Shown here: positions 3,677 to 61,303 of the stretch, piece by piece
Position numbering within the stretch: the stretch's first letter is position 1
Layout: every line of letters begins with the position of its first letter
Source: Candidatus Tayloriibacteriota bacterium
Lineage (GTDB): Bacteria; Patescibacteriota; Minisyncoccia; Phycocordibacterales; UBA6065
NCBI GenBank assembly: GCA_016215405.1
Contig: JACRJQ010000005.1
Span: 11,560-75,559, forward strand
DNA length: 64,000 nucleotides
Direction: 5' to 3'
Made by a program: the position numbers and the translations under genes
The notes under the pieces: model-generated
The model's database searches: none
What the model was told of the DNA's origin: nothing
What the model saw: the letters and a program-made list of their open reading frames with translations, nothing else

Positions 3677-4081
3677 ATGCAAAGCATCTATAGGGCATAC
3701 GACGTGCGCGGCATATATCCGGACGAGGTGAACGCAGAGAGCGTAAAGAAGATAGGCAGGCAGTGCGCCCGGATATTCGAATCGGGGAAGGTCGTCATAA
3801 GCCAGGACGGGAGGCACGGCGGCGCGGAGCTGCGCCGCGCCTTTTGCGAAGGTCTCCTCGAAGAGGCTGGGCGCACTGGCAGAGAATTCGAGCTCATACA
3901 GGTGCCTTTATCCACATCCCCTATGTTCTACTATCTCGTTGGATATTACAGGGCTTCTGGCGGGGCGATGGTCACGGCTTCGCATAATCCAAAGGAGTAT
4001 AACGGGATAAAGGCGGTACGGCGCGAAGGAGATTCCGTTATGTTCGTAAGCGGCACCGAGATAGGAGCGATAGAACTCTAG
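3677..4081 (+). pseudogene. Phosphomannomutase/phosphoglucomutase, N-terminal domain I fragment (active-site TASHNP); split from downstream ORF by frameshift plus TAG
   Basis: Contains the PGM/PMM catalytic Ser motif TASHNPKEYNGIK; ends at a TAG at 4079-4081 exactly at the domain I/II boundary; next ORF starts 3 nt later in another frame. Confidence 0.65.
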
Positions 4082-4083
4082 CG

Positions 4084-4980
4084 ATGAATATGGACCACCA
4101 CGTCAGGGCATATGCCGATTTCCTCGAGTCGAAGACAGATCTGAGGATGCCGCTTAAGGTCGTATGCGACTTTTCGAACGGCCCGACCTCCATCGTCGCG
4201 CGCGAGCTCGCGCGAAGGCTCTCGTCGAGCCTGCACATGGTGCCGATGAACGATTCGGTGCACCCCGATTTCCCGGCCCACGGCCCAGACCCCTCGGTCC
4301 CCGCGGCGGCGACCGAGATAGGGAAAAAAGTCGTGGAGACCCGCGCGGATCTCGGCGTCATATTCGATGGCGACGGCGATCGCGCGGTCTTCGTAGACGA
4401 AAGGGGCGTGCCCGTGCCGCCCGTCGCAGTCGCCCTGTTCCTCATGAAGAATATCCCGGGCCCGCACGTCCTCGACGCCTTGCTTTACGAAGCGGCGACG
4501 CATCTCGATCCTAGCCTCATAGGAAGCATCTTCGCCTCTAAGGTGGGCAGGTTCTTTATAAGCAGGACGATGAGGGAGAAGGGTGCCTCGATCGGCGCCG
4601 AATTCTCCGGGCACTTTTTCTTTAGAGATTTTTTCGGGCTCGATTCGGCCCTCCTTACGATGATTTCGGTCTTGAACCTGATATCTCGCACGGAGGCTCG
4701 CGCCTCGTCGTCTTTCTCGAGATACGGCGGGCACTCCGTAGTAGCGGCTAAAGCCTGCCTCTCGAGGCCGTTCTCTTCTGTCGCGGAGGATATCAAGCTC
4801 TCCGTATCTTCCCAAGGCCCGCGAATATCGGAGTTAGACGGCCTGACCGTCGATTTCGGAGACAGATGGGTGAATCTGCGGCCCTCGAATACCGAACCGG
4901 TGATAAGGATAACGGCAGGGGCGCCAGATCCCATCGTCGCAGAAGCGCTCGGGGAAGAGTTTAGAAAGGCTGTCGCCTAA
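4084..4980 (+). pseudogene. Phosphomannomutase/phosphoglucomutase domains II-IV (C-terminal part of split gene)
   Basis: Motifs FDGDGDR (metal-binding loop), GAEFSGH, C-terminal domain IV; together with 3677-4081 reconstitutes a ~430-aa PMM/PGM. Confidence 0.65.
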
Positions 4981-4984
4981 ATCG

Positions 4985-5008
4985 AAAGCCGGCTCGAGGC
5001 CGGCTTTT
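4985..5008. terminator. Intrinsic terminator hairpin AAAGCCGGC-TCGAG-GCCGGCTTTT
   Basis: Perfect 9-bp GC stem followed by T-run directly after the PMM ORF stop. Confidence 0.7.
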
Positions 5009-5013
5009 CGCTC

Positions 5014-5121
5014 TTAGTAGAGGGACGGAAGGTAGGCGAGTATCATCGACAGGATGATAAGGACGCATATGACGCCCCAGACGATCGCTACTTTCTTTCG
5101 GTGGTTCGGATTGAGAAGCAT
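5014..5121 (-). CDS. Small hypothetical single-TM membrane protein (35 aa)
   Basis: ATG..TAA ORF MLLNPNHRKKVAIVWGVICVLIILSMILAYLPSLY; hydrophobic core with N-terminal basic residues; not in the supplied ORF track (too short). Confidence 0.3.
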   Translation of the reverse strand: MLLNPNHRKKVAIVWGVICVLIILSMILAYLPSLY

Positions 5122-5627: not shown

Positions 5628-5687
5628 CTATTGGCGGAGATGAAATTTTTGTTGCCTAGTCCCTCAAGAGAGGGTAAATCGGGTATA

Positions 5688-5933
5688 ATGCCATCTATGA
5701 AAAAAGTAGAGATATATTCGACCCCGGTATGCAAGTATTGCAATCTTGCGAAGAATTTCTTTAAGAAGAACAACGTATCGTATACGGAATACGACGTCGC
5801 TTCTGACGGAGCGAAGAGGGCTGAGATGGTGGAGAAATCCGGCCAGCTCGGGGTGCCGGTGATCGATGTAGGCGGCGACATAGTCGTAGGCTTCGACGAA
5901 GCGGTCCTCAAGCATCTATTGGAGGTGAAATAG
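5688..5933 (+). CDS. Glutaredoxin-like protein (NrdH/glutaredoxin family, CxxC = CKYC)
   Basis: ~81 aa thioredoxin fold: KVEIYSTPVCKYCNLAKNFF...GQLGVPVIDVGGDIVVGFD; -10-like TATAAT overlaps the ATG. Confidence 0.7.
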   Translation: MPSMKKVEIYSTPVCKYCNLAKNFFKKNNVSYTEYDVASDGAKRAEMVEKSGQLGVPVIDVGGDIVVGFDEAVLKHLLEVK

Positions 5934-5960: not shown

Positions 5961-6000
5961 CCATGCAAAAACACTGGCTTAAGGCCAGTGTTTTTGCATG
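5961..6000. terminator. Long perfect hairpin (17-18 bp stem) CCATGCAAAAACACTGGC-TTAAG-GCCAGTGTTTTTGCATGG
   Basis: Seen directly; lies between the convergent glutaredoxin gene (+) and tRNA-Arg (-), abutting the tRNA 3' CCA. Confidence 0.6.
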
Positions 6001-6075
6001 GTGCCCTCAGAAGGAATCGAACCTACATCTCATCCTTAGGACGGATTTGCTCTATCCATTGAGCTATGAGGGCGC
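5999..6075 (-). tRNA. tRNA-Arg (anticodon CCU, tentative) with encoded CCA
   Basis: Minus-strand cloverleaf GCCCTCA..D-arm GCTC/GAGC..anticodon arm AATCC-GTCCTAA-GGATG..T-loop TTCGATT..TGAGGGC-A-CCA; one stem mismatch, so anticodon assignment is moderate. Confidence 0.55.
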
Positions 6076-18317: not shown

Positions 18318-18490
18318 CAAAGAAAAAAGCGCCTCAGGGCGTCTTTTTCTTTGTGCTGGGAGGAAGCGCGGGGCGCTTCCTCCCAGGTTCGAAGCCCGAT
18401 TGAGCATCTTTTCGAGCCGTACTCGGCGAAGGAAAAATCCAATCGCGGGTACTGACCCCGTGGGGGTCGAGTCCTGGGTCCAAGCACAAC
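18318..18490 (+). repeat. tRNA-trailing element (Phe copy): terminator + GC hairpin + conserved core + 17-nt direct repeat of tRNA-Phe 3' end
   Basis: CCTGGGTCCAAGCACAA at 18304-18320 repeated at 18474-18490; core GGTTCGAAGCCCGATTGAGCATCTTTTCGAGC...GGGTACTGACC homologous to cores after tRNA-Glu and tRNA-Ser. Confidence 0.75.
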
Positions 18491-18548
18491 ACGAAAAACC
18501 CTCTTTGAGGCGATTCTCACGCAGGCTCAGTTCTCGTATAATGCTCTC

Positions 18549-19205
18549 ATGTTCATAGAGAGAAATATCTGCAATCCAGAGGCTAAATCCGGCTGGATAG
18601 AGGTCATCGCGGGCTGCATGTTCTCCGGCAAGACCGAGGAGCTCATCAGGCGCCTTAAGAGGAGCTCGATAGCGAAGCAGAAGGTGGCGATATTCAAGCC
18701 CAAGATCGATACGAGGTATCATCCCGAATTCGTCGTCTCTCACGACGCTAACAAGATCCATTCCATACCCGTCAAATCGTCCGCGGAGATACTCTCGCTA
18801 TCGGGCGAGTGCGACGTGGTCGGGATAGACGAAGCGCAGTTCTTCGATATGGGCATAGTCGACGTCGCGAACGACCTCGCGAACGCGGGGAAGAGGGTCA
18901 TCGTGGCGGGGCTCGATATGGATTACACCGGGAAGCCGTTCGGCCCTATGCCGTATCTCCTCGCTGTCGCCGAATTCGTCACGAAGGTGAACGCTATCTG
19001 CGCGAAGACGGGCGAGATCGGCTCCTATACCTACAGGCTCGAGGGCCACAGCGACGCTCAGGTCCTCGTCGGCGAGAAGGAGGCCTACGAGGCGCGCGGC
19101 AGGAGGGCGTTCTTCGACGGTATGAAAGAGCGCGGGGTTTACAGGCATGCGTCCTCTTCGAAGGCGAAGCCGAAGAAGCGAGCTAAAAAGGCCGCGATCA
19201 AATAG
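18549..19205 (+). CDS. tdk: Thymidine kinase
   Basis: P-loop [21 protein letters not shown]; Lys-rich C-terminal tail; TATAAT 8 nt upstream of ATG. Confidence 0.9.
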
Positions 19206-23085: not shown

Positions 23086-24264
23086 TTATCCTCTTTTCGT
23101 CAACTGTCGGCGACTTCCGAGGGGGAGAGACCCTGCGGCTTTGAGCTCGACGCTTGAAGGCTGGGCTTTATCCCGATTGAAGTATCCGGCGAGGGCTATC
23201 ATGAGGCCGTTGTCGGTCGAGTGGTCGATCTGGGGCAAAAGGAGCGCGATAGACGATTCCGAGGCGAGCTTCTGGAGCCTCTCGCGGAGCACTCTGTTCG
23301 CTATGACGCCTCCGCCTATGACGAGCGACCTTGCCGCGAAGGCATCGATCGCCTTTCGCGTCTTCTCGACGATCACGTCCGCCACCGAATCCTCGATGTC
23401 CCTCGCGTATGCCATCTTCCTCTCGTCAGAGAGGGCTCCCTCTTTTCTTGTGGCATACAGGACGGAGGTTTTTAGACCCGAGAAAGAGAGGTCGAGGTCG
23501 TCCGAAGATATCATGGGCCTCGGAAGCGGGGTTTCGAGGGCGACGCCTCTCTCTCTCGCGATCCGAGCGAGCTCCGATATCTTTGGGCCGCCGGGATAAG
23601 GAAGCCCGAGGATCCTCGCGGTCTTGTCGAAGCATTCGCCTATAGCGTCGTCGCGCGTCTCGCCGACGATCTCGTATGAGCCCGGCCTTTCCATGAGGAC
23701 TATCTGCGTGTGTCCGCCCGAGATGAGGAGGGCGAGGGAAGGATGCTCCGGCGAGACGAGCTTATAGCTCTTGCCCGAGCCGCGGATGAGGGCGGTGAGG
23801 ACATGGCCCTCCATGTGGTTGCAGGGGACGATAGGAAGCTCCCATATCGTCGCGAGGGCTCGGGCGAAATTTATGCCCACCCAGAGAGCTGGTTCGAGGC
23901 CGGGGCCCACCGTGACGCTGATGAGGTCGATATCGGGCCTTCGTATCTTCGAGACGCGCTCTTTGAACGCCGCGAGGAGCTCCGACTCTCGATCGAGGAT
24001 CATTCCAATGTTCTCAAGAATGTGAGAATGTGGGGCGTCTGAAGGGAGGAGCATGCCCGCCTCGGCGAGCGTCTTTTCGAGGACCGGCACGAGGTTTCTC
24101 TGGTGCTCTCGCTTGGCGAGCGTAGGGAAGACGCCGCCATATTCGGCGTGTATGTCTATCTGCGAGTGCACCGTGTTGCCGAGCACCTCGACTTCGGCGC
24201 CTTTAACCTCGATCAGGCTTATCGCGGTCTCGTCGCAGGAGGTTTCGATCCCGAGGATTCTCAT
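23086..24264 (-). CDS. tsaD: tRNA N6-adenosine threonylcarbamoyltransferase TsaD (Kae1/Gcp)
   Basis: MRILGIETSCDETAISLI N-terminus, metal-binding His pair, 392 aa with C-terminal extension. Confidence 0.9.
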   Translation of the reverse strand: MRILGIETSCDETAISLIEVKGAEVEVLGNTVHSQIDIHAEYGGVFPTLAKREHQRNLVPVLEKTLAEAGMLLPSDAPHSHILENIGMILDRESELLAAFKERVSKIRRPDIDLISVTVGPGLEPALWVGINFARALATIWELPIVPCNHMEGHVLTALIRGSGKSYKLVSPEHPSLALLISGGHTQIVLMERPGSYEIVGETRDDAIGECFDKTARILGLPYPGGPKISELARIARERGVALETPLPRPMISSDDLDLSFSGLKTSVLYATRKEGALSDERKMAYARDIEDSVADVIVEKTRKAIDAFAARSLVIGGGVIANRVLRERLQKLASESSIALLLPQIDHSTDNGLMIALAGYFNRDKAQPSSVELKAAGSLPLGSRRQLTKRG

Positions 24265-24329
24265 GGAGTAGTTCTAACATAAAGGCAATAGTTGGTCACG
24301 GATCTGGGGGCCTTTCCCTGGGGGCAGGG

Positions 24330-24485
24330 AGTTTTTTATGGATGGTCACGGGTCTCTTTGTGGTCAAAAGTCTTTTCTCGCCGTCGCTCGAAAAGCTTTC
24401 GACCCTGGCTCGCGGCCTCGCGAAGCGTTCGGCACCGCTCCGCCTCGCACAAGCTAAAATCCTGCCACAGGCAGGATTTTAGCTT
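24330..24485. repeat. Repeat-rich spacer: ~40-nt imperfect direct repeat (also at 24561-24600) plus 17-bp perfect hairpin CAAGCTAAAATCCTGCC-ACAG-GGCAGGATTTTAGCTTG
   Basis: Seen directly; CCTCGCGGCC(T/G)CGCGAA(G/A)CGTTCGGCA(C/T)CGCTCC occurs twice; hairpin at 24448-24486 abuts a tRNA-Val 3'-end fragment. Confidence 0.6.
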
Positions 24486-24663
24486 GTGCGCGGTATAGGA
24501 ATCTTTCCCTCGACTCGGATTCGCTCGTCAGCGAATCCGGTCTGGTCACCGCCTCGCGGCCGCGCGAAACGTTCGGCATCGCTCCGGCGTTCAAGTCCTA
24601 TACGCATATCTTCAAGACATGCTACCGCGCACGTAAAAACCGGCAGTCGCCGGTTTCTTTCTG
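24486..24663 (-). repeat. tRNA-trailing element (Val copy) bounded by duplicated tRNA-Val 3' end
   Basis: TGTGCGCGGTATAGGA (plus-strand view) at 24486-24501 and again at 24663-24678 (the real tRNA end); contains terminator AAACCGGCGACTGCCGGTTTTT and an inverted T-arm fragment GTTCAAGTCCTATAC. Confidence 0.7.
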
Positions 24664-24736
24664 TGCGCGGTATAGGACTTGAACCTATGACCCTCTCAAC
24701 GTCAATGAGATGCTCTACCAACTGAGCTAACCGCGC
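24664..24736 (-). tRNA. tRNA-Val (GAC)
   Basis: GCGCGGTTAGCTCAGTTGGTAGAGC..anticodon loop TTGACGT..T-arm ATAGGTTCAAGTCCTAT..ACCGCGC-A. Confidence 0.9.
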
Positions 24737-24778
24737 TTATGTAGAGACTACTCTACACGAAAAGACGTTTTTTTCAAG

Positions 24779-25132
24779 CTACTTTTTAGGCAGCGGAGGC
24801 GCCGGCGGGGGAGCGTCCTTGGGCTTGTCGAGCACCGTCGAGAGCCTCTTGATGACGAAGTAGACGACCGCGGCGAGGATGAAGAAATTGATGAGGAGCG
24901 AGAGCGTCTTGCCGTAGGCGATAGTCGAGCCGTTTATGGTGACGCCGAGATTCGCGAGGTCGGTAAACCGCGCGAACGCGAGGCCGATGATGGGGTTTAT
25001 CACGTCGTTCACGAACGAGCCGACGAGATCGGAGGTGGCCTTGCCGAGGATGAATCCCGTCGCGAAGCCTACGACTCCCTGTGTCCTTATAAAATGTATG
25101 AATCCGGCAAGCTGTTCTTTGAGCATGTACAT
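24779..25132 (-). CDS. mscL: Large-conductance mechanosensitive channel MscL
   Basis: FIRTQGVVGFATGFILGKA...VINPIIG TM1 signature, 117 aa with Pro-rich C-terminus. Confidence 0.85.
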   Translation of the reverse strand: MYMLKEQLAGFIHFIRTQGVVGFATGFILGKATSDLVGSFVNDVINPIIGLAFARFTDLANLGVTINGSTIAYGKTLSLLINFFILAAVVYFVIKRLSTVLDKPKDAPPPAPPLPKK

Positions 25133-25184
25133 ATATTACTACGGATCATCGCCTATATGGGAAACATGTGATTCGGTTCGGGCG

Positions 25185-25341
25185 GGGAGATTCGACCTCT
25201 ACTCGGTCAGTACCCGTTTCCCATTTTCTCGGATGGAAGTCCTCGAAAATACGGGAGAACGGCTTCGAATCTCCCACGCCGTGCCGCTGGCACGGCTCCT
25301 CTCCGCAAAATCAAAACGCGCCGATAGCGCGTTGGATTTTG
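25185..25341 (-). repeat. tRNA-trailing element (Ser copy) with degenerate tRNA-like fragments
   Basis: Minus-sense: terminator AACGCGC-TATCG-GCGCGTT+T-run, hairpin GGAGCCGTGCCAGCGGCACGGC, core GATTCGAAGCCGTTCTCCCGTATTTTCGAGG...GGGTACTGACC, then partial copy (TCGAATCTCCCC) of tRNA-Ser T-loop/3' stem. Confidence 0.65.
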
Positions 25342-25428
25342 CGGAGAGGGGGAGATTCGAACTCCCGAGGAGCTTGCGCCCCTGCCGGTTTTCGAAACCG
25401 GTGCATTCGACCACTCTGCCACCTCTCC
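25342..25428 (-). tRNA. tRNA-Ser (CGA), type II with long variable arm
   Basis: GGAGAGGTGGCAGAGTGGTCGAATGCACCGGTTTCGAAAACCGG..variable arm..GGGAGTTCGAATCTCCC..CCTCTCC-G. Confidence 0.85.
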
Positions 25429-25506
25429 GTGGGAATCTCAAATGCCCGAATATCCTATCACTTTTTGCCAAAATGGCAAAAAAAAGCTATATTTTGGCGG
25501 TTCGCC

Positions 25507-25578
25507 GGCCCTATCGTCTAATGGTTAGGACAGGAGCTTTTCAAGCTCTAAATCGGGGTTCGATTCCCCGTAGGGTCA
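25507..25578 (+). tRNA. tRNA-Glu (UUC)
   Basis: GGCCCTATCGTCTAATGGTTAGGAC..anticodon loop TTTTCAA..CGGGGTTCGATTCCCCG..TAGGGTC-A. Confidence 0.9.
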
Positions 25579-25750
25579 CAACGCGGCCGCCGAGAGGCGG
25601 CTTTTGCGTTGTGACCCTAAGTAGCGCCGGGGCGCGCTACGTCGGGGAATCGAAGCCTGTTTGAGCAAACTTTCGAGCTTTCTCAAGCGATGAAAGTTTC
25701 CAAACAGGGTACTGGTCATGTAAGGACCGATATTCCCCGTAGGGTCACAC
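25579..25750 (+). repeat. tRNA-trailing element (Glu copy) ending in 17-nt direct repeat of tRNA-Glu 3' end
   Basis: TTCCCCGTAGGGTCACA at 25564-25580 and 25733-25749; terminator GGCCGCC-GAGA-GGCGGC-TTTT, hairpin TAGCGCCGGGGCGCGCTA, core GAATCGAAGCCTGTTTGAGCAAACTTTCGAGC...GGGTACTGG homologous to Phe/Ser copies. Confidence 0.75.
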
Positions 25751-25784
25751 CAGGTGTTTTTTCGCTTCTCCAGAATCCTCCCAC

Positions 25785-25816
25785 AAAAAACCGCCCTCTT
25801 TTTCGGAGGGCGGTTC
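25785..25816. terminator. Bidirectional terminator AAAAAACCGCCCTC-TTTTTCGG-AGGGCGGTT
   Basis: GC hairpin flanked by A-run and T-run; downstream of minus-strand gene 25830-26603. Confidence 0.7.
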
Positions 25817-60721: not shown

Positions 60722-60926
60722 GGAGCTCCCGCCCAAAACGAAAACAGCTCGTCGCTGTTTTGTTTGTGGGCGAGGGGGGGACTTGAATCTTACAGATTCG
60801 GTACAGGTTTTCTGTTTCCTCGGTTGGAAACCCTCGTAAACATAGAAAACCTTTTCGCGTCCCCCATGCAGAGCCACAGGCTCTGCTCTCGCCCAAAACG
60901 AAAACAGCTCATCGCTGTTTTGTTTG
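60722..60926 (-). repeat. tRNA-trailing element (Leu-UAG copy) incl. ~55-nt direct repeat of tRNA-Leu 3' end plus its terminator
   Basis: CGCCCAAAACGAAAACAGCTC(G/A)TCGCTGTTTTGTTTGTGGGCGAGGGGGG at 60722-60777 and 60889-60940 (167-bp period); hairpins AACAGC-GATGA-GCTGTT and GCAGAGCC-TGT-GGCTCTGC. Confidence 0.75.
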
Positions 60927-61007: not shown

Positions 61008-61094
61008 GACGTAGAGAGCTTAGCATAAACTACGGCGGAGGGAATCTCGGCGTACAGCCGAAGCCTGATCGGCGCGAGCGCGCAGCTCGATTGA

Positions 61095-61303
61095 ATCTCG
61101 ATCCCTACACATACGTCCAGCGGACATGCGCGTAGGGATATCTCTCTCGATTTAAATTTTCTCGTCAGAAAATTTAGTCTGGGTACCGCCTCGCTCCCGC
61201 CGGAGACCGGCAGGCCCCGTTTCGGCGTTCGATCCCTACACGCAAGCCTAACAGGCTTGCTAGGGCGGGCACGAAAAAACGGCCGGAGCCGTTTTTTCTC
61301 GTG
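61095..61303 (-). repeat. tRNA-trailing element (Lys copy) with direct and inverted partial copies of tRNA-Lys T-arm/3' end
   Basis: Minus-sense: terminator AAAAAACGGCTCCGGCCGTTTTTT, hairpin GCAAGCC-TGTT-AGGCTTGC, T-arm-like GTGTAGGGATCGAACGCC, GGTACCCAGAC, hairpin AAATTTTCT-GACG-AGAAAATTT, partial copies ATCCCTAC (61127-61140, 61098-61110). Confidence 0.6.

Follow-up and report, generated by a model that had tools for sequence, protein, structure and literature searches.

The locus studied here consists of a tRNA-Val(GAC) gene and the DNA behind its 3′ end in a stretch of 64,000 nucleotides (nt) from contig JACRJQ010000005.1 of a Candidatus Tayloriibacteriota bacterium, hereafter called the window and numbered from its first letter. 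Between the tRNA gene and tsaD lie 397 nt (24265-24662), and this spacer can be broken down into the modules of a small repeated unit that trails tRNA genes. Its modules are the terminator, the antisense segments A′ and T′ that match the tRNA, the hairpin P2, a core, and T-A, which repeats the tRNA 3′ end in sense orientation. Read along the tRNA-sense strand, the features are as follows.

24663-24736, reverse strand: tRNA-Val(GAC), called by ARAGORN and by Rfam RF00005 (70.9 bits); the proximal copy of a direct repeat is made up of its final 16 nt (nt ~59-74 and one further base)
24486-24662, reverse strand: unit 1, intact
24633-24662, reverse strand: terminator module of unit 1 (A-run, GC hairpin, T-run), directly after tRNA nt 74
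24623-24632, reverse strand: A′ of unit 1, GTGCGCGGTA, exactly complementary to tRNA-Val nt 65-74, which comprise the acceptor 3′ strand, the discriminator and C74
24604-24622, reverse strand: P2 hairpin of unit 1, at the boundary of the acceptor-stem and T-stem complements
24589-24603, reverse strand: T′ of unit 1, GTATAGGACTTGAAC, exact complement of tRNA-Val nt 53-67
24501-24588, reverse strand: core of unit 1, Val/Lys subtype
24486-24500, reverse strand: distal copy (sense) of the tRNA-Val 3′ end, TCCTATACCGCGCAC; it closes the unit and is predicted to pair with A′ and T′
about 24337-24485, reverse strand: unit 2, truncated
24451-24485, reverse strand: terminator module of unit 2, AAGCTAAAATCCTGCC-TGT-GGCAGGATTTTAGCTT, of the form AAAA-stem-TTTT
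24446-24450, reverse strand: A′ remnant of unit 2, GTGCG (5 nt), which lengthens the preceding hairpin against the end of the distal copy
24409-24445, reverse strand: copy of the P4′ hairpin in unit 2, 91% identical to that of unit 1
24337-24404, reverse strand: probable 3′ part of unit 2
24281-24337, reverse strand: weak candidate for a third, very decayed remnant
24271-24279, reverse strand: candidate extended -10 promoter, TGTTAGAAC, judged from its sequence, in the inserted DNA 6 nt upstream of the tsaD ATG
23086-24264, reverse strand: tsaD (Pfam TsaD, 2.5e-75), the far edge of the insertion, which adjoins tRNA-Val directly in relatives

The core of unit 1 runs in the order CGAAC-GCC, P4′ hairpin (24549-24588), junction GGTGACCAGAC, P5′ hairpin (24516-24539, loop CUGACGAG) and AGUCGAGGGAAAGAU, and its terminator module has a terminator-like sequence form on both strands. 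The tRNA-sense strand of this unit folds with -73.1 kcal/mol (z = -6.5), the opposite strand with -64.2. In unit 2, P2 and T′ are deleted. In the stretch assigned to its 3′ part, 24362-24404 form a long hairpin with a tandem-GA motif of the symmetric CGAG/CGAG kind, 24343-24349 carry the junction motif GTGACCA, and TCCATA (24337-24342) is a remnant of the T-A copy; a similar layout occurs behind tRNA-Val and tRNA-Glu of a relative (L025; loci and contigs from other genomes or assemblies carry L numbers). Since the terminators of units 1 and 2 have no sequence relation while their P4′ hairpins are 91% identical, unit 2 is a mosaic and not a fresh tandem copy of unit 1, which favours separate events or recombination between copies. 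The third-remnant candidate, which belongs to an 18-nt repeat, comprises an A-run with a hairpin (24311-24337) and a second GTGACCA (24293-24299).

The initial annotation had reported a duplicated tRNA-Val 3′ end 177 nt apart, an inverted T-arm copy, a terminator between the tRNA-end copies, a recurring ~40-nt unit and a perfect 17-bp hairpin, and all of this could be recovered. The direct repeat TGTGCGCGGTATAGGA matches at 16 of 16 positions (24485-24500 and 24662-24677) with the reported spacing of 177, the inverted copy GTTCAAGTCCTATAC, which corresponds to T′, at 15 of 15 (24589-24603 against 24670-24684), and a terminator scan places a terminator-like hairpin between the tRNA-end copies at 24637-24656. 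The recurring unit, which coincides with the P4′ hairpin, does exist, but as a direct repeat of 34 nt (24409-24442 and 24553-24586) with 91% identity and a spacing of 144, not 150. Likewise, the hairpin, here the unit 2 terminator together with the A′ remnant, is present but longer than stated, with arms of 24 nt (24443-24466 / 24470-24493) at 96% identity, of which the 3′ arm continues into the distal copy of the tRNA end; among exact inverted repeats in the Val region the longest measures 21 nt. As a control for chance, 300 dinucleotide shuffles of 24200-24800 were generated; the longest exact repeat had a mean length of 8.7 nt (direct) and 8.5 nt (inverted) and reached at most 14 nt in either class, against 16 and 21 observed. 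An independent Logan assembly contig (L023, SRR12113407) is 100% identical across 24265-24479 and thus reproduces the distal half of the locus. Coverage by the independent assembly ends at 24479, and for 24480-24662 the module order matches that of copies in other genomes; a look-up by the MscL product returned no second contig spanning unit 1. The first base of this short-read contig (L023:1, window 24479) falls within the 21-bp hairpin of unit 2; tRNA-trailing elements probably break short-read assemblies at tRNA loci.

The suspicion that the Val locus belongs to a family of tRNA-trailing elements was borne out by the window itself and by copies in genomes of the candidate phyla radiation (CPR, Patescibacteria). 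When the 3′ flanks of all ten window tRNAs were inspected, six carried the unit (Phe, Val, Ser, Glu, Leu(TAG) and Lys) and four were without it (Gly, Arg, Leu(TAA) and Cys). Apart from the Val locus, the copies are listed below, with scores from R1, a covariance model of the main-type core.

18319-18487, forward strand: copy behind tRNA-Phe, main type (80 bits)
25175-25340, reverse strand: copy behind tRNA-Ser(CGA), main type (81 bits)
25580-25748, forward strand: copy behind tRNA-Glu(TTC), main type (92.8 bits)
60766-60925, reverse strand: copy behind tRNA-Leu(TAG), divergent main type (42.9 bits)
61120-61302, reverse strand: copy behind tRNA-Lys(CTT), Val/Lys subtype

Behind all six tRNAs the modules follow in the same order: terminator, A′, P2, T′, core and sense T-A copy. 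A′ is the complement of tRNA nt 66-74 (9-10 nt), and T′ (~12-15 nt) is complementary to the T loop and the 3′ strand of the T stem. The core measures 80-100 nt and the T-A copy 15-20 nt; the whole unit amounts to about 135-180 nt and contains no open reading frame (ORF). In each window copy A′, T′ and T-A match the local tRNA, and in five of the six the tRNA-sense strand has the more stable fold. The terminator module, a GC hairpin and T-run preceded by an A-run, heads most copies of the family with sequences that are unrelated to each other. A distal direct repeat of the tRNA 3′ end, 15-18 nt long and exact or near-exact, is present in the Phe and Glu copies and in L004, L007, L010, L011, L012, L014 and L019. 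It is important to note that what had been taken for products of rearrangement are therefore the regular modules of every intact copy: T′ (the inverted T-arm fragment), the terminator, and distal T-A (the duplicated 3′ end). The Val locus does hold more than one unit, as had been proposed, one intact and one truncated. On the other hand, it does not stand out as the most rearranged member, because extra partial or tandem units also occur at Leu(TAG), where another terminator and the beginning of a further unit come after the copy, at Lys, where a partial second unit follows at 61036-61110 (R1, E = 0.13), and at L006, L011, L012, L017 and L033. With regard to the tRNA ends themselves, nine of the ten tRNA genes (5557-61705) encode nt 74 (C) without the rest of CCA, and the full CCA is encoded only by tRNA-Arg(CCT) at 5999-6073.

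When three core motifs were searched for in one genome of each species, 22 loci came up, 19 of them from metagenome-assembled genomes (MAGs) of CPR/Patescibacteria, namely Saccharibacteria, Paceibacterota, Lloyd-, Nomura-, Kaiser- and Taylorbacteria; L002, L008 and L021 are chance matches in coding regions and were discarded as element copies. At no fewer than 15 loci a tRNA in the same orientation precedes the motif match by 60-80 nt; Tyr, Gln, Ser, Arg, Glu, Ile and Lys are among the tRNAs concerned. Wherever a tRNA is annotated upstream, the copy follows on the same strand and is tailored to that tRNA, and the conserved, covarying core was found behind at least ten tRNA species. R1 finds 30 copies in the window and the genome-scan loci, including tandem second and third units of L006 and L017 and the divergent Leu(TAG) copy. 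Truncated, tandem or mosaic copies are seen at Val, Leu and Lys and in L006, L011, L012, L017 and L033. Cores behind different tRNAs of one genome can be nearly identical (97% for L004:1543-1639 and L011:5083-5179, 94% for L003:7781-7875 and L015:7351-7444), whereas cores behind the same tRNA in different genomes are less alike, at 75-81% identity. Those same-genome pairs have wholly different targeting segments, and compensatory changes set their P2 stems apart.

The units of the Val/Lys subtype were not detected by R1 even with filters off; accordingly, their kinship with the main type rests on module order and junction motifs, not on a score. Their core reads CGAAC-GCC, P4′, GGCGGT(G/A)(A/C)CCAGAC, P5′ with loop CUGACGAG, and AGUCGAGGGA(A/G)A. 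A metagenome scan for this subtype gave 16 loci, of which only L033 and L038 are real and the others are chance matches in coding sequences; the L038 unit sits between tRNA-Pro and tRNA-Gly.

Several copies depart from the standard layout. In Saccharibacteria, Kaiser-, Nomura- and Taylorbacteria MAGs the terminator is replaced by short motifs of the GCGAAGC / ACGAAGT type (L007:4527-4545, L013:~4990-5016, L014:4247-4263, L018:5594-5609 and L019:~2332-2348); there, A′ is degenerate and T′ retained. In a Kaiserbacteria MAG, three tandem units of different subtypes stand behind one tRNA-Lys (L017:2675-2986, reverse strand), and a weak extra match lies on the other side of this tRNA on the opposite strand (L017:3141-3239, forward strand). 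For two units (L033:2759-2973 and L006:2300-2478) no tRNA is called upstream; a similar AAGTTCG(A/G)ATTTTGT stretch precedes both, possibly a decayed or atypical tRNA 3′ half.

The core of the main type folds into a three-way junction, in which the strands GAAG and GUACU join the T′:T helix and two hairpins, the long P4 and the short P5. In the R1 alignment the share of cells that pair is 92.1% compared with 68.8% in shuffles, double-change cells number 169 against 51, and the covariation score is 0.618 against at most 0.18 with slid partners. On the tRNA-sense strand, 38 G:U stand against 9 A:C, an excess from which it follows that this is the folding strand. The tailoring to the cognate tRNA is seen in the scores as well, with 11.2 (antisense) and 14.8 (sense) for cognate and 7.1 and 6.8 for non-cognate tRNAs. 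Where A′ is intact (Phe, Glu, Ser, Val, Lys, L001, L004, L010, L015, L017 and L019), P2 is found between the complements of nt 66 and nt 65. With A′ complementary to nt 74-66 and T′ beginning at the complement of nt 65, P2 branches at the boundary of acceptor and T stem, the point where the tRNA body exits. In our structural model, the pairing of A′ and T′ with T-A is shown to close the core by a helix that copies the stack of acceptor and T stem. Since A′ pairs with the discriminator and C74 too, this helix ends exactly at the insertion junction and leaves no free NCCA-type tail. The geometry is thus tRNA-like, with the acceptor stem stacked on the T stem and a branch at the nt 7/66 to 49/65 junction; neither ARAGORN nor the Rfam tRNA model calls the units, in which the junction core stands in for the T loop and A′ pairs with nt 73 and 74. 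In one clade P4 carries TTTT-C-GA-G opposite C-GAA/GAU/GGU-GA-AAAA (TTTCGAG was part of the search pattern), in the other a symmetric CGAG/CGAG tandem G.A without bulge. C-GAA-GA opposite C-GA-G is the sequence pattern of a kink-turn (k-turn) of the Kt-7 type. UCGAA(R), GUAC(U) and the P5 loop UGUAA are also conserved in the eight copies found by the model alone, most of which have the GA motif too.

Some other structural assignments were tried and rejected. A hammerhead ribozyme can be discarded, as CUGACGAG is the loop of the P5′ hairpin with its covarying stem, the main-type junction is GAAG/GUACU and Rfam gives no match. P2 does not derive from the tRNA anticodon arm, for the same variant GGAAGCG...CGCTTCC stands behind unrelated tRNAs, and the idea of A′ as a copy of the tRNA 5′ strand finds no support, because A′ covers nt 73-74 as well and pairs A:U at tRNA-Glu where the tRNA has G.U.

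Comparison with relatives indicates that the DNA between tRNA-Val and tsaD was inserted. The neighbours of the Val locus are housekeeping genes (MscL, tsaD, a class I aminoacyl-tRNA synthetase (aaRS) and PrsW, by Pfam), and the order MscL / tRNA-Val / tsaD / aaRS / PrsW is kept in four relatives with TsaD proteins 61-66% identical. In three of them (L024, L026 and L028) the tsaD ATG follows 1-2 nt past tRNA-Val nt 74, and the conserved TsaD N-terminus aligns to the same ATG; hence 24265-24662 is an insertion, and tRNA-Val abutting tsaD looks like the ancestral arrangement. The idea of two successive insertions at the Val locus is partly upheld: the spacer is an insert relative to these three syntenic relatives and holds more than one unit, and unit 2 may have come from a second insertion or from a tandem duplication that later diverged. 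In the fourth relative, L025, tRNA-Val is inverted and trailed by a degenerate unit lacking P2 and T′, and a similar unit stands behind its tRNA-Glu; the whole block of tRNA-Val gene, promoter and degenerate unit (L025:2178-2500) is inverted relative to MscL and tsaD. Other tRNAs differ in occupancy too: tRNA-Ser(CGA) is occupied in the window and empty in L025 and L028, and tRNA-Glu(TTC) is occupied in the window, empty in L028 and followed by a different subtype in L025. The same tRNA may therefore be empty, or carry different subtypes, among related genomes.

With moderate confidence, we read 24265-24662 as one intact, one truncated and perhaps one vestigial unit of a small protein-less element of CPR/Patescibacteria tRNA 3′ ends, non-autonomous and with a structured core. 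The presence and absence at related loci, the flanking repeats, the many copies, their decayed, tandem and mosaic forms and the lack of an ORF together argue for an insertion element that is non-autonomous and targets tRNA 3′ ends specifically, and the covariation argues for a folded single strand under selection. The units stand exactly after tRNA nt 74. The T-A segment may act as the homology or attachment core, and recombination between two T-A repeats could allow a unit to enter a cognate tRNA gene, to be lost or to be duplicated. The terminator and the regenerated tRNA-like 3′ end would preserve the function of the tRNA and of its neighbour, so that insertion is tolerated, and the folded core may be needed, by the element or by a trans-acting factor, for persistence or movement. 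At the Val locus, at least two events would have stacked units at one site.

A number of results weigh against this proposal. Pfam, with 50 of the 67 window ORFs, returned housekeeping functions only, and integrase, reverse transcriptase, transposase and L7Ae were not found; no gene for such a mobilising enzyme adjoins the copies, and within the 8-kb loci there are no distant second copies of the tRNA 3′ end that would mark larger islands. As a consequence, no mobilising enzyme is known for the family. The proposal offers no account of how each copy gains an antisense segment matching its own tRNA. The terminator between tRNA and element argues against strong co-transcription; the folded species may be RNA or single-stranded DNA (ssDNA). 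The near-identical cores within one genome fit recent transposition, but gene conversion among copies long in residence, or a host factor that exerts selection, would fit them equally well, and the empty sites could in principle come from precise deletion between the direct repeats. Moreover, 22 of the 30 aligned sequences were selected with the three search motifs, so that in these the motifs cannot vary.

Somewhat short of an even chance, and thus put forward tentatively, is the wider proposal that the units represent a new, CPR-confined class of elements. It would be a small structured RNA or ssDNA module that homes to tRNA 3′ ends via both target strands, folds into a copy of the acceptor/T-arm helix around a possibly catalytic or protein-binding core and is perhaps excised, circularised or re-inserted by host enzymes of tRNA processing or recombination without a protein of its own.

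A host function is the alternative that survives best, although we regard it as rather doubtful. The units would be genes of a tRNA-like non-coding RNA made from tRNA transcripts, in which the helix mimics the acceptor/T minihelix, RNase P and 3′-end enzymes excise the RNA and the k-turn-like core binds a protein or ligand, absence being gene loss. The strong covariation with its sense-strand G:U bias would be expected of such an RNA, and so would the k-turn-like C-GAA-GA / C-GA-G motif and the junction nucleotides, kept even in hits found by the model alone, and the position of P2 right where a tRNA branches. Some copies, such as those of L018 and L038, belong to a tRNA cluster and have no terminator, and the CPR-wide distribution and the near-identical cores in one genome point the same way. 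Yet a terminator precedes most copies, many are truncated, tandem or devoid of A′ or the distal copy, and related genomes carry different subtypes behind the same tRNA. Close relatives lack units at the same tRNAs, with the tRNA-Val/tsaD abutment looking ancestral, and the pairing of A′ with the discriminator and C74 leaves no free NCCA-type end.

Less probable still, in our view, is a mimic of the target made of folded ssDNA or a circle as the moving form, in which the pairing of A′ and T′ with T-A rebuilds the double-stranded 3′ end of the tRNA gene for exchange with the chromosome by a host tyrosine recombinase, in the manner of CTX-phi attP(+) with XerCD and of integron attC with IntI. One strand exchange followed by replication would yield the order tRNA, terminator, A′, P2, T′, core and T-A. 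This would account for the antisense and sense copies of the target, the end of the helix at the nt 74 junction and the flanking direct repeats, and the strand-specific G:T bias is as expected of a folded single strand. The terminator ahead of the element argues against a role as RNA, and in several copies GCGAAGC / ACGAAGT-type motifs, which form very stable DNA mini-hairpins, stand in for it. However, a recombinase, a replication protein and a free circular form were not found, and a scan of viral contigs with the main motif gave 0 matches. P2 at the tRNA branch point would have no obvious role, and the variable bulge (GAA, GAU, GGU) next to constant GA pairs fits an RNA k-turn better than a DNA mini-hairpin.

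Direct repeats of the tRNA 3′ end of 15-20 nt, as found here, are the classic signature of tyrosine-integrase attachment (att) sites, and the units might be regarded as scars of integrase islands or prophages, with the repeats as attL/attR cores and the interior as the remains of an internal deletion. This is very improbable, given that the same covarying core stands behind at least ten tRNA species in many CPR lineages with uniform unit size and module order, that no integrase was found nearby among the 50 window ORFs and no larger island within the 8-kb loci, and that the repeats at Val are only 177 nt apart. That the locus is an assembly artefact or a set of chance repeats is hardly credible: the Logan contig does break in the unit 2 hairpin and independent coverage stops short of 24480-24662, but the repeats are far above the shuffled expectation, the distal part is identical in an independent assembly and unit 1 has the module order of copies in unrelated genomes.

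At gathering score, Rfam 15 found only 10 tRNAs in the whole window, and at E <= 10 it gave no meaningful match on the Val, Ser and Glu elements in 24200-25800. No description of the family was found in the literature searched; as coverage was incomplete, a prior description is possible. Nonetheless, parts of the units resemble known systems. They share with tRNA-targeting integrative elements (the att sites of tyrosine integrases and mobilizable or cis-mobilizable remnants) the insertion at a tRNA 3′ end, the regenerated end and the distal direct repeat of 15-20 nt, but are only ~135-180 nt long, lack integrase and cargo, use one core for many tRNAs and have an added antisense copy of the target. 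As in CTX-phi attP(+) with XerCD and integron attC with IntI, two inverted segments pair in one strand to imitate or form a site and the signal is strand-specific. This comparison concerns geometry alone, for the target is a tRNA 3′ end instead of dif or attI, the core sequence is conserved and no recombinase is linked.

With tRNA-like structures (the tRNA-like domain of tmRNA, mascRNA, viral tRNA-like structures and bacterial YrlA) the units have in common the stack of acceptor and T stem, with the remainder branching off at the position of the tRNA body. They differ in that a three-way junction takes the place of the T loop, the helix includes the discriminator and nt 74 and the sequence comes from the neighbouring tRNA. 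Short, multi-copy, non-coding and hairpin-rich repeats with decayed or tandem copies are also known as miniature inverted-repeat transposable elements (MITEs), repetitive extragenic palindromes and bacterial interspersed mosaic elements (REP/BIME), Correia elements and IS200/IS605-derived palindrome-associated transposable elements (PATEs). Unlike these, the CPR units are strictly confined to tRNA 3′ ends and their core covaries like a structured RNA. By the standards of MITEs, their inverted segments differ from copy to copy and equal the target, in place of fixed terminal repeats, and the 'duplication' is 15-20 nt of tRNA. Finally, the likeness to k-turn RNAs (Kt-7 type; T-box stem I, SAM-I and box C/D) lies in C-GAA-GA opposite C-GA-G of P4, or the symmetric tandem G.A in one subtype. 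It is a local motif known from the sequence pattern, and the rest of the fold is unlike any of them. On these comparisons, the family would be placed with site-specific miniature insertion elements and tRNA-like structures, with a real chance of being a new class.

If the units are mobile, they would be a rare case of a protein-less, site-specific element whose targeting segments are fitted to a different tRNA in each copy. This raises the question of how the match arises and may offer a simple natural form of target recognition that relies on mimicry or on base pairing. Should they be host RNAs, they would constitute an abundant, unannotated class of tRNA-linked structured RNAs in a third of bacterial diversity. 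In either case annotation is affected, as the units separate tRNAs from essential genes, of which tsaD is one, by terminators and new promoters and could pass for integrase att scars or pseudo-tRNAs.

The promoter of tsaD is a case in point. The candidate extended -10 element TGTTAGAAC received no call in a consensus promoter scan; the thymidine-kinase gene shows the same geometry (TATAAT, 6 nt, ATG). As two terminators separate the tRNA promoter from tsaD, this gene probably uses TGTTAGAAC, and its promoter would now lie inside the inserted DNA. The tsaD ATG of the window is at 24262-24264. In L024, L026 and L028 (2426-2503), a TTGAAA-N17-TAAAGT promoter lies upstream of tRNA-Val and none was seen for tsaD, which suggests a tRNA-mRNA co-transcript in which tRNA 3′ processing produces a leaderless tsaD mRNA end. 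Within the window, TATAAT boxes stand 6-7 nt before the ATG of the thymidine-kinase gene (18520-18551) and of the ORF after tRNA-Gly (5680-5700), so that leaderless transcripts seem common in this genome.

Elsewhere in the window, phosphoglucomutase occupies two adjacent ORFs on the forward strand in different frames, the first (3677-4081) encoding domain I and the second (4084-4980) domains II-IV; the gene may be genuinely split, or the break may come from a frameshift or a sequencing error.

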